A program made the translations under genes and the position numbers. From NCBI RefSeq assembly GCF_003334305.1, contig NZ_QOWS01000009.1: 64,000 bases of DNA, one strand, 5' to 3'. The notes under the pieces are model-generated. The model saw nothing but the letters and a program-made list of their open reading frames with translations. It did not search any database and was not told where the DNA came from. Of the stretch, positions 1 to 37,466 are shown one piece after another. Position 1 is the stretch's first letter; every line of letters starts with the position of its first letter. Source of the DNA: Escherichia coli (GTDB lineage: Bacteria > Pseudomonadota > Gammaproteobacteria > Enterobacterales > Enterobacteriaceae).

Positions 1-18
1 ACTCAGGGGTTAGCTTTA

Positions 19-171
<153 letters not shown>

Positions 172-409
172 CTAAACTTGAATAAATTCAATGGCTTTAT
201 TGGATATCCGCCGAAAAATGAAACGATGGACACCGAAGCCATGGGTGATTAAAGAGGCCGGATTGTAATAATTGTACACTCCGGAGTCAATTCTCTTTCC
301 TTATTTACCGCGCTTTTCCGCACCTTTTCGCAGGGAAAATGTACGACCTCACACCAGTGAAAACCAGCATGGCGCGCCGGGTGGAGGATTATACGGGCTG
401 ATGGGTAAA

Positions 410-660
410 GCGCAAGGATCGTCCTGGATCTTTATTAGATCGATTAAGCCAATTTTTGTCTATGGTCATTAAATTTTCCAATATGCGGCGTAAATCGTGC
501 CCGCCTCGCGGCAGGATCGTTTACACTTAGCGAGGTCTGGAAAGTCCTGTGGATAAATCGGGAAAATCTGTGAGAAACAGAAGATCTCTTGCGCAGTTTA
601 GGCTATGATCCGCGGTCCCGATCGTTTTGCAGGATCTTGATCGGGCATATAACCGCAGAC
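410..660. promoter_or_regulatory. dnaA promoter region: cluster of GATC (Dam) sites and a DnaA box (TGTGGATAA, about 548-556)
   Basis: At least 8 GATC tetramers within about 230 bp upstream of dnaA; 9-mer matching the reverse complement of the DnaA box TTATCCACA. Confidence 0.6.
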
Positions 661-765
661 AGCGGTTCGTGCGTCACCCTCAAGCAGGGTCTTTTCGACG
701 TACGTCAACAATCATGAATGTTTCAGCCTTAGTCATTATCGACTTTTGTTCGAGTGGAGTCCGCC

Positions 766-2169
766 GTGTCACTTTCGCTTTGGCAGCAGTGTCTTGCCCG
801 ATTGCAGGATGAGTTACCAGCCACAGAATTCAGTATGTGGATACGCCCATTGCAGGCGGAACTGAGCGATAACACGCTGGCCCTGTACGCGCCAAACCGT
901 TTTGTCCTCGATTGGGTACGGGACAAGTACCTTAATAATATCAATGGACTGCTAACCAGTTTCTGCGGAGCGGATGCCCCACAGCTGCGTTTTGAAGTCG
1001 GCACCAAACCGGTGACGCAAACGCCACAAGCGGCAGTGACGAGCAACGTCGCGGCCCCTGCACAGGTGGCGCAAACGCAGCCGCAACGTGCTGCGCCTTC
1101 TACGCGCTCAGGTTGGGATAACGTCCCGGCCCCGGCAGAACCGACCTATCGTTCTAACGTAAACGTCAAACACACGTTTGATAACTTCGTCGAAGGTAAA
1201 TCTAACCAACTGGCGCGCGCGGCGGCTCGCCAGGTGGCAGATAACCCTGGCGGTGCCTATAACCCGTTGTTCCTTTATGGCGGCACGGGTCTGGGTAAAA
1301 CTCACCTGCTGCATGCGGTGGGTAACGGCATTATGGCGCGCAAGCCGAATGCCAAAGTGGTTTATATGCACTCCGAGCGCTTTGTTCAGGACATGGTTAA
1401 AGCCCTGCAAAACAACGCGATCGAAGAGTTTAAACGCTACTACCGTTCCGTAGATGCACTGCTGATCGACGATATTCAGTTTTTTGCTAATAAAGAACGA
1501 TCTCAGGAAGAGTTTTTCCACACCTTCAACGCCCTGCTGGAAGGTAATCAACAGATCATTCTCACCTCGGATCGCTATCCGAAAGAGATCAACGGCGTTG
1601 AGGATCGTTTGAAATCCCGCTTCGGTTGGGGACTGACTGTGGCGATCGAACCGCCAGAGCTGGAAACCCGCGTGGCGATCCTGATGAAAAAGGCCGACGA
1701 AAACGACATTCGTTTGCCGGGCGAAGTGGCGTTCTTTATCGCCAAGCGTCTACGATCTAACGTACGTGAGCTGGAAGGGGCGCTGAACCGCGTCATTGCC
1801 AATGCCAACTTTACCGGACGGGCGATCACCATCGACTTCGTGCGTGAGGCGCTGCGCGACTTGCTGGCATTGCAGGAAAAACTGGTCACCATCGACAATA
1901 TTCAGAAGACGGTGGCGGAGTACTACAAGATCAAAGTCGCGGATCTCCTTTCCAAGCGTCGATCCCGCTCGGTGGCGCGTCCGCGCCAGATGGCGATGGC
2001 GCTGGCGAAAGAGCTGACTAACCACAGTCTGCCGGAGATTGGCGATGCGTTTGGTGGTCGTGACCACACGACGGTGCTTCATGCCTGCCGTAAGATCGAG
2101 CAGTTGCGTGAAGAGAGCCACGATATCAAAGAAGATTTTTCAAATTTAATCAGAACATTGTCATCGTAA
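766..2169 (+). CDS. dnaA: Chromosomal replication initiator DnaA (GTG start, 467 aa)
   Basis: Track ORF 754..2169; protein from [13 protein letters not shown] matches E. coli DnaA; AAA+ Walker [11 protein letters not shown]; start moved to the internal GTG. Confidence 0.95.
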
Positions 2170-2173
2170 ACCT

Positions 2174-3273
2174 ATGAAATTTACCGTAGAACGTGAGCAT
2201 TTATTAAAACCGCTACAACAGGTGAGCGGTCCGTTAGGTGGTCGTCCTACGCTACCGATTCTCGGTAATCTGCTGTTACAGGTTGCTGACGGTACGTTGT
2301 CGCTGACCGGTACTGATCTCGAGATGGAAATGGTGGCACGTGTTGCGCTGGTTCAGCCACACGAGCCAGGAGCGACGACCGTTCCGGCGCGCAAATTCTT
2401 TGATATCTGCCGTGGTCTGCCTGAAGGCGCGGAAATTGCCGTGCAGCTGGAAGGTGAACGGATGCTGGTACGCTCCGGGCGTAGCCGTTTTTCGCTGTCT
2501 ACCCTGCCAGCGGCGGATTTCCCGAACCTCGATGACTGGCAGAGTGAAGTCGAATTTACCCTGCCGCAGGCAACGATGAAGCGTCTGATTGAAGCGACCC
2601 AGTTTTCTATGGCGCATCAGGACGTTCGCTATTACTTAAACGGTATGCTGTTTGAAACCGAAGGTGAAGAACTGCGCACCGTGGCAACCGACGGCCACCG
2701 TCTGGCGGTCTGTTCAATGCCAATTGGTCAATCTTTGCCAAGCCATTCGGTGATCGTACCGCGTAAAGGCGTGATTGAACTGATGCGTATGCTCGACGGC
2801 GGCGACAATCCGCTGCGTGTGCAGATTGGCAGCAATAACATTCGTGCCCACGTTGGCGACTTTATCTTCACCTCGAAACTGGTGGATGGTCGCTTCCCGG
2901 ATTATCGCCGCGTTCTGCCGAAGAACCCGGACAAACATCTGGAAGCAGGCTGCGATCTGCTCAAGCAGGCGTTTGCTCGCGCGGCGATTCTCTCTAACGA
3001 GAAATTCCGCGGTGTGCGCCTGTATGTCAGCGAAAACCAGCTGAAAATTACTGCCAACAACCCGGAACAGGAAGAAGCGGAAGAGATCCTCGACGTTACC
3101 TATAGCGGTGCGGAGATGGAAATCGGCTTCAACGTCAGCTATGTGCTGGATGTTCTGAACGCGCTGAAATGCGAAAACGTCCGCATGATGCTGACCGATT
3201 CGGTTTCCAGTGTGCAGATTGAAGATGCCGCATCACAGTCGGCTGCCTATGTTGTCATGCCAATGAGACTGTA

Positions 3274-3274
<1 letters not shown>
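2174..3274 (+). CDS. dnaN: DNA polymerase III beta sliding clamp
   Basis: 366-aa [22 protein letters not shown], immediately downstream of dnaA. Confidence 0.95.
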
Positions 3275-6790
<3,516 letters not shown>

Positions 6791-6808: not shown

Positions 6809-6912
6809 CGTGCCTGATGCGCTACGCTTATCAGGCCTACGAAAATCTTGCAATGTATTGAATTTTCATGATTTTGTAGGCCGGATAAGGCGTTCACGCC
6901 GCATCCGGCAAG
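6809..6912. repeat. REP/BIME-type extragenic palindromic repeats downstream of gyrB
   Basis: Two REP-like palindromes (gcctgatgcgctacgcttatcaggcctac and gtaggccggataaggcgttcacgccgcatccggc) in inverted orientation. Confidence 0.7.
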
Positions 6913-16970: not shown

Positions 16971-17071
16971 TACATCGTAGCCGATGAGGACGCGCCTGAT
17001 GGGTGTTCTGGCTACCTGACCTGTCCATTGTGGAAGGTCTTACATTCTCGCTGATTTCAGGAGCTATGATT

Positions 17072-17485
17072 ATGCGTAACTTTGATTTATCCCCGCTTTA
17101 CCGTTCTGCTATTGGATTTGACCGTTTGTTTAACCACTTAGAAAACAACCAGAGCCAGAGTAATGGCGGCTACCCTCCGTATAACGTTGAACTGGTAGAC
17201 GAAAACCATTACCGCATTGCTATCGCTGTGGCTGGTTTTGCTGAGAGCGAACTGGAAATTACCGCCCAGGATAATCTGCTGGTGGTGAAAGGTGCTCACG
17301 CCGACGAACAAAAAGAGCGCACCTATCTGTACCAGGGCATCGCTGAACGCAACTTTGAACGCAAATTCCAGTTAGCTGAGAACATTCATGTTCGTGGCGC
17401 TAACCTGGTAAATGGTTTGCTGTATATCGATCTCGAACGCGTGATTCCGGAAGCGAAAAAACCGCGCCGTATCGAAATCAACTAA
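17072..17485 (+). CDS. ibpA: Small heat-shock protein IbpA
   Basis: 137 aa from [20 protein letters not shown]; alpha-crystallin domain. Confidence 0.9.
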
Positions 17486-31354: not shown

Positions 31355-31442
31355 AACTGTGATCGATACTCAACTATGCCCTAAATACGTCAAAATTCGT
31401 GCCGAAATTGCGCGTTCTGCGCGGAACACGTATACTTTCAGT

Positions 31443-31518
31443 GTTGACATAATACAGTGTGCTTTGCGGTTACCAGCCGCAGGCGGCTGATGAAACCTCG
31501 CTCCGGCGGGGTTTTTTG
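31443..31518 (+). ncRNA. istR: IstR-1 antitoxin sRNA (longer IstR-2 isoform would start upstream, near 31370-31380)
   Basis: About 75-nt unit ending in an intrinsic terminator (GC-rich stem plus tttttt at 31512-31517); its 5' 20 nt ttgacataatacagtgtgct is near-identical to 31189-31208 in the tisAB leader, so the two RNAs are complementary; TATACT -10 at about 31432. Confidence 0.6.
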
Positions 31519-37390: not shown

Positions 37391-37466
37391 ACGCTATCTC
37401 AGGCCTGATTTGCTGCTGATTTTTACAATGCATGCCTCACGCAGGTATTCATTTCAGGAGTAACCC

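Follow-up and report, generated by a model that had tools for sequence, protein, structure and literature searches.

The GATC-dense stretch at positions 410-765 of the window (the whole stretch of Escherichia coli DNA that was analysed, 64,000 nucleotides) is almost certainly the native, textbook E. coli dnaA promoter region located between the divergent genes rpmH and dnaA, judging from its sequence, its flanking genes and its motifs. This promoter region is already known in detail, and the analysis added nothing new on the circuit; a first reading of the sequence alone (the sequence-only reading) had rightly called it known biology, as the region has been characterised in the K-12 literature (PMC5835720, PMC8203912, PMC466948). 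The region represents a classic link of DNA replication with gene expression, in which DnaA limits its own synthesis and fork passage leads to a temporary shut-off. Sequence identity, motif positions, motif excess and conservation were computed here, while DnaA and SeqA binding, methylation and effects on transcription were taken from published K-12 experiments.

Identity and context of the locus

In the first 2400 bases of the window, rpmH (19-159, minus strand) was followed by a 606-bp intergenic region and by dnaA (766-2169, plus strand), and then by dnaN, recF and gyrB. The GATC-dense region therefore lies between divergent rpmH and dnaA, directly 5' of the dnaA GTG. The GTG start of dnaA named in the sequence-only reading is the annotated one at 766, whereas the mechanical list of open reading frames let dnaA begin at the in-frame GTG at 754. 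In RefSeq, both MG1655 and the identical stretches are annotated with rnpA, rpmH, the 26-codon gene ysdD, dnaA and dnaN.

Positions 1-2400 showed 100% identity to many E. coli chromosomes and were matched in 5425 of 5426 complete E. coli genomes. The shorter stretch 400-770 was matched in 5424 of the 5426 genomes, with at least 97.5% identity among the matches listed. Compared with K-12 MG1655 (MG1655 position = 3884495 minus window position), six mismatches were found over the 2400 bases. Two of these were located in the rpmH-dnaA intergenic region, namely A for G at 360 and G for T at 535, and they left all of the GATC sites and the DnaA box untouched. The SNP at 535 is near the putative transcription start of P1. 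Alignment to the characterised dnaA promoters had been proposed as a check on the sequence-only reading; the alignment was run and agreed with it, as these two SNPs were the only intergenic differences and the motifs were placed as in the K-12 literature.

The window was collinear with the chromosome of strain 05-3629 from rpmH to gmk at about 99% identity, except for one indel of about 120 bp, and this collinearity indicates that the window runs away from oriC. The indel corresponds to about 120 bp of the uhpC-uhpT intergenic region of strain 05-3629 that are missing from the window at about 37431-37454. When MG1655 oriC (3925744-3925975) was compared by BLAST with the 64 kb, only chance matches of at most 26 bp (E ≥ 1.7) were obtained, one of which was the DnaA box itself. 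An identity of the GATC-dense region as oriC or a fragment of it was rejected on this result, and the earlier statement that oriC lies outside the window held, with the gene map from rpmH pointing the same way. With the dnaA landmark, the window can thus be identified as E. coli chromosome and oriented: it lies about 41 kb from oriC and heads away from it.

No RNA family was found inside 410-765 by the Rfam search. Folding of 617-790, which covers the P2 leader, gave z = -0.37 against shuffled sequences, showing nothing unusual in structure. Elsewhere in the window, Rfam strongly matched 1276-1356 on the minus strand, inside the dnaA coding sequence, to AsdA, the RNA antisense to dnaA mRNA (101.9 bits compared with a gathering score of 52), and AsdA would add another layer of dnaA control in the window. 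Other Rfam matches were istR (31388-31517, plus strand) adjoining tisB, the ROSE_2 thermoregulator (17007-17078, plus strand) 5' of ibpA, tRNA-Sec (48321-48411, minus strand) and the ES036 sRNA (6833-6875, minus strand) just 3' of gyrB.

GATC sites, promoters and DnaA boxes

Nine GATC sites were counted in 410-765, where the sequence-only reading had claimed at least eight. The sites start at 417, 427, 438, 515, 583, 607, 620, 633 and 639 and span 417-642, a total of 226 bp. They had been placed upstream of the GTG within about 250 bp, which is correct for the width of the block and incorrect as a distance, since the block extends from -349 to -124 relative to the dnaA GTG and only five sites (583-639) are within 250 bp of it. 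The spacings were 10, 11, 77, 68, 24, 13, 13 and 6 bp, giving two sub-clusters at 417-438 and 583-639. The GATC at 515-518 is isolated and located just 5' of the putative P1 -10 element. Cooperative SeqA binding takes place on GATC pairs within about three helical turns of each other, and both of the sub-clusters appear suited to it by their spacing. The dnaA promoter region of K-12 has been described as containing nine GATC sites within 225 bp (review by Hansen and Atlung, PMC5835720), and the same number was present in 226 bp of the window.

The whole window contained 275 GATC sites, or one per 233 bp. Under a Poisson model with λ = 0.97 per 226 bp, the probability of nine or more sites was about 9e-7. 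In 64-kb Markov simulations, the GATC count of the densest 226-bp stretch stayed at or below 8 in 200 order-1 sequences and at or below 7 in 200 order-3 sequences, and nine sites were reached in none of the 400. The promoter cluster was the densest 226-bp GATC stretch of the window, and the one other stretch with at least six sites was located inside the dnaA coding sequence. It is scarcely credible that the GATC clustering and the DnaA box arose by chance in an intergenic region balanced in AT and GC. Short motifs do recur, and 18 one-mismatch variants of the box were present in the window compared with 11.4 expected matches of all kinds. However, the perfect DnaA box was the only one in 64 kb, the GATC density exceeded that of every simulation and of the Poisson expectation, and both the GATC cluster and the box were kept in about 100 species. 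Chance clustering was rejected on the basis of the simulations and the cross-species conservation.

Two tandem promoters are placed in this region. The P2 -35 region, AAGATC (581-586, plus strand), holds the GATC at 583-586, and AGATCT is located at 582-587. The P2 -10 element TATGAT overlaps the GATC at 607-610 and is followed by the discriminator CCGCGG at 610-615, the two together covering 604-615 on the plus strand. The spacer between AAGATC (581-586) and TATGATC (604-610) was 17 bp. From the position of CCGCGG, the P2 start is predicted at about 616-617, and the three close GATC sites 620, 633 and 639 (620-642) are found just 3' of it. With P2 placed in this way, the dnaA 5' leader from P2 would be about 150 nt long (616-765, plus strand). 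The core of P1 is probably formed by the -10-like hexamer TACACT at 522-527 with a start near 535 (522-536, plus strand). We inferred this start from the placement of P1 5' of the DnaA box in the literature and from the distance between P1 and P2, which we take to be roughly 80 bp.

These placements follow the published descriptions of the K-12 promoters. P1 is located upstream of the DnaA box (PMC5835720, PMC8203912), and a primer with which 'dnaA1p and dnaA2p' were cloned begins at window position 446 (PMC11732032), which agrees with a P1 between 446 and the DnaA box. For p2, a GATC in the -10, a GATC in the -35 and a CCGCGG just 5' of +1, known as the discriminator or 'Travers box', have been reported (PMC5835720). 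Iuliani et al. (PMC466948) described five SeqA-relevant GATC sites at P2, of which the -35 and -10 hold two and the other three follow the start at short spacings; the three sites 3' of the P2 start are the SeqA sites mutated in the m3SeqA construct (PMC466948). The same layout was found in the window, with GATC in both hexamers, CCGCGG before +1 and GATC at 620, 633 and 639.

A consensus sigma-70 scan of 150-800 detected neither of the dnaA promoters. Both match TTGACA/TATAAT poorly, and they were therefore placed from the published descriptions, with P1 partly by inference. The only promoter-like site returned by the scan was on the rpmH side, a good sigma-70-like promoter facing rpmH at 262-290 on the minus strand (TTGACT, 17 bp, TACAAT).

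The TTATCCACA-type DnaA box noted from the sequence alone was confirmed as a perfect copy at 548-556 on the minus strand. It reads TGTGGATAA on the dnaA strand and was the sole zero-mismatch TTATCCACA in the 64 kb. The box is located 5' of the P2 elements (581-617), and P1 would in turn be 5' of the box, which places it between the two promoters. A consensus DnaA box between p1 and p2 has been described in K-12 (PMC5835720), where it serves as a high-affinity site whose role is treated in PMC5835720 and PMC8203912. A candidate for DnaA box 2, TTTCTCACA, was found at 569-577 on the minus strand with one mismatch to the relaxed consensus TTWTNCACA. Box 2 is reported upstream of P2 (PMC5835720, PMC466948), together with further ATP-dependent DnaA sites (PMC5835720). 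AGATCT, present at 582-587, is the ATP-DnaA-specific hexamer, and AGATCT boxes are needed for full repression, while deletion of the consensus box alone leaves autoregulation in place (PMC8203912). According to these papers, DnaA acts through more than the single consensus box, using box 2 and ATP-DnaA sites including AGATCT as well; the window contains box 2 and AGATCT as sequences. Near-consensus DnaA boxes were also observed within the dnaA coding sequence, namely GTATCCACA at 836-844 (minus strand) and TTTTCCACA at 1514-1522 (plus strand), the latter fitting the relaxed TTWTNCACA.

Conservation across Enterobacterales

Species-representative genomes were scanned with a degenerate DnaA N-terminal peptide pattern, which gave 120 loci, almost all of them from Enterobacterales. 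The taxa included Escherichia, Salmonella to Yersinia, Serratia, Photorhabdus, Providencia, Pantoea, Erwinia, Edwardsiella and Arsenophonus. The compared set of 104 comprised 103 loci with at least 620 bp of upstream sequence and the window itself. A perfect TGTGGATAA in the same orientation was present 210-400 bp before the GTG in 102 of the 104 loci. The box was then used as the anchor of the alignment. Its conservation among the 102 follows from that choice, while its presence in 102 of 104 is an independent result.

Each of the two P2 positions had a GATC no more than 3 bp away in 99 of the 102 species, and the exact 24-bp spacing was kept in 96. In the MAFFT alignment, the columns of the sites at 583 and 607 read GATC in 97% of the species each, those at 417, 427 and 438 in 73, 89 and 76%, respectively, and that at 515 in 41%. 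The sites at 620, 633 and 639 were kept at their exact position in 33-53% of the species and within 3 bp in 39-53%. Mean identity to E. coli was 78% for GATC columns compared with 53% for other columns. Box 2, AGATCT and the -10 were nearly invariant across species, with box 2 columns conserved at 80-99%. The 240-bp core contained a median of 8 GATC sites, compared with 1.24 expected from each locus's own density. What the comparison mainly re-confirms is that conservation in the region is strongest at the DnaA box and at the GATC pair within the -35 and -10 hexamers of P2. Outside this order, a locus of Oceanimonas sp. (Aeromonadales) had nine GATC sites in the 360 bp 5' of dnaA without a perfect TTATCCACA, which suggests that GATC enrichment reaches beyond Enterobacterales independently of the consensus box.

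The upstream triplet of GATC sites at 417, 427 and 438 (417-441), spaced by 10 and 11 bp and thus one helical turn from each other, overlaps ysdD, an annotated small open reading frame of 26 aa (MTIDKNWLNRSNKDPGRSLRFTHQPV; 389-469, minus strand). A terminator-like hairpin with a T-rich tail was observed at 364-380 (minus strand), just 3' of the ysdD stop. The triplet might be outside dnaA control altogether and be kept for ysdD coding or as part of divergent rpmH-rnpA control, a reading that we consider unlikely. It would account for the location of the sites inside ysdD, with the putative P1 start about 100 bp or more 3' of them and the next GATC 77 bp away, and for the primer for both dnaA promoters, whose start at 446 leaves the triplet out (PMC11732032). 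On the other hand, only about 15 of 102 Enterobacterales species had a recognisable YsdD-like open reading frame, although the GATC sites of the triplet were kept in 73-89%. Conservation over the triplet peaked on the GATC motifs and had no 3-base periodicity, and the original description counts the triplet among the nine promoter-region sites (PMC5835720). Coding constraint on ysdD as the cause of triplet conservation was rejected because of the rarity of the open reading frame. Since ysdD is rare and conservation peaks on GATC without codon periodicity, the three sites are, as far as the alignment indicates, conserved as DNA and not via the YsdD peptide; they may serve dnaA, rpmH or both.

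The triplet could also be a separate SeqA/Dam element conserved at the DNA level, which might nucleate sequestration of the whole rpmH-dnaA region or couple the expression of rpmH-rnpA (or ysdD) to fork passage. We regard this as a long shot; if true, the triplet would be more than a part of the dnaA promoter proper.

A second GATC cluster was observed within the dnaA coding sequence, with 14 sites in 1419-1964 (546 bp) and 15 in the whole coding sequence compared with 5.7 expected. Across 75 Enterobacterales the dnaA coding sequence had a median of 8 GATC sites, a weak excess over the 5.8 expected. The promoter cluster could accordingly be read as mainly a part of a broader SeqA domain that spans dnaA and its promoter and helps to organise the chromosome behind the fork or to discriminate strands in mismatch repair, with any effect on DnaA synthesis being secondary. 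The dense intragenic cluster fits such a domain, as does the SeqA ChIP-chip signal, which 'spread across the entire gene' dnaA and was gone when replication was blocked (PMC2912659). Initiation synchrony also stayed intact when the three GATC sites 3' of P2 were removed (summarised in PMC466948). However, only the promoter cluster was strongly conserved (median 8 per 240 bp compared with 1.24 expected; intragenic, 8 compared with 5.8 per coding sequence), and the two best-conserved GATC sites are located exactly in the P2 -35 and -10. In addition, mutation of the three downstream sites shifted the phase of the reporter oscillation and the coupling to division (PMC466948), and dnaA transcription ceases just after the gene is replicated (PMC5835720). 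A mainly domain-wide role of the promoter sites thus seems improbable to us.

Regulation of dnaA and comparison with known systems

DnaA autoregulation and SeqA/Dam sequestration have been experimentally established for the K-12 region (PMC5835720, PMC8203912, PMC466948). The earlier interpretation of Dam/SeqA-coupled and autoregulated dnaA transcription is supported for the window by its match to this region, with function taken from these papers. In the window, dnaA would be driven by two tandem promoters with starts near 535 (P1, putative) and near 616-617 (P2). P2 is the stronger promoter, and its GC-rich discriminator makes it sensitive to ppGpp (PMC5835720, PMC466948); DnaA both activates and represses it (PMC466948). 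DnaA would bind the box at 548-556 and box 2 at 569-577, and at low DnaA-ATP this would stimulate P2. With rising DnaA-ATP, the protein would oligomerise from the boxes over weaker ATP-dependent sites, including the AGATCT of the -35, so that RNA polymerase would be occluded and both promoters repressed.

The GATC sites would be methylated by Dam, and methylation of the P2 sites raises transcription about twofold (PMC5835720). Initiation takes place at oriC, about 41 kb away, and the fork that passes soon afterwards would leave the sites hemimethylated. SeqA would bind the close hemimethylated sites and delay their remethylation, keeping the promoters off for part of the cell cycle, and the shut-off would prevent new DnaA from being made directly after initiation. 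In K-12 the fork replicates dnaA about a minute after initiation, and the region is hemimethylated for about one fifth of the doubling time with both promoters off (PMC5835720).

The extent to which the promoter GATC sites influence the timing of initiation is disputed. The -35/-10 sites reportedly contribute little to SeqA repression (summarised in PMC466948), whereas the three sites 3' of P2 set the phase of promoter oscillation and its coupling to division (2024 single-cell study, PMC466948). According to a modelling paper, the influence on timing that GATC sites in the promoter exert 'remains to be established'.

The closest known system is K-12 dnaAp1/dnaAp2 (Hansen et al. 1982, as reviewed in PMC5835720), which is the same locus with the same flanking genes. 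The nine GATC sites, the consensus box, box 2, AGATCT, the -10 TATGATC and CCGCGG were all identical in the window, and the differences were strain-level SNPs only, A instead of G at 360 and G instead of T at 535. E. coli oriC resembles the dnaA region in its roughly tenfold GATC excess and its DnaA boxes, with 11 GATC sites in 232 bp compared with 9 in 226 bp, and both are sequestered by SeqA after replication (PMC5835720). However, the two share no sequence similarity beyond an 11-nt match at the box, and the dnaA region lacks an array of boxes and is a promoter, not an origin. Sequestration is also shorter at the dnaA region, about 1/5 of the doubling time compared with 1/3 at oriC (PMC5835720). 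The mioC promoter beside oriC is likewise repressed by DnaA and has one consensus box and several weaker close boxes (PMC5835720). Unlike the dnaA region, it is not sequestered (PMC5835720), and it lies outside the window.
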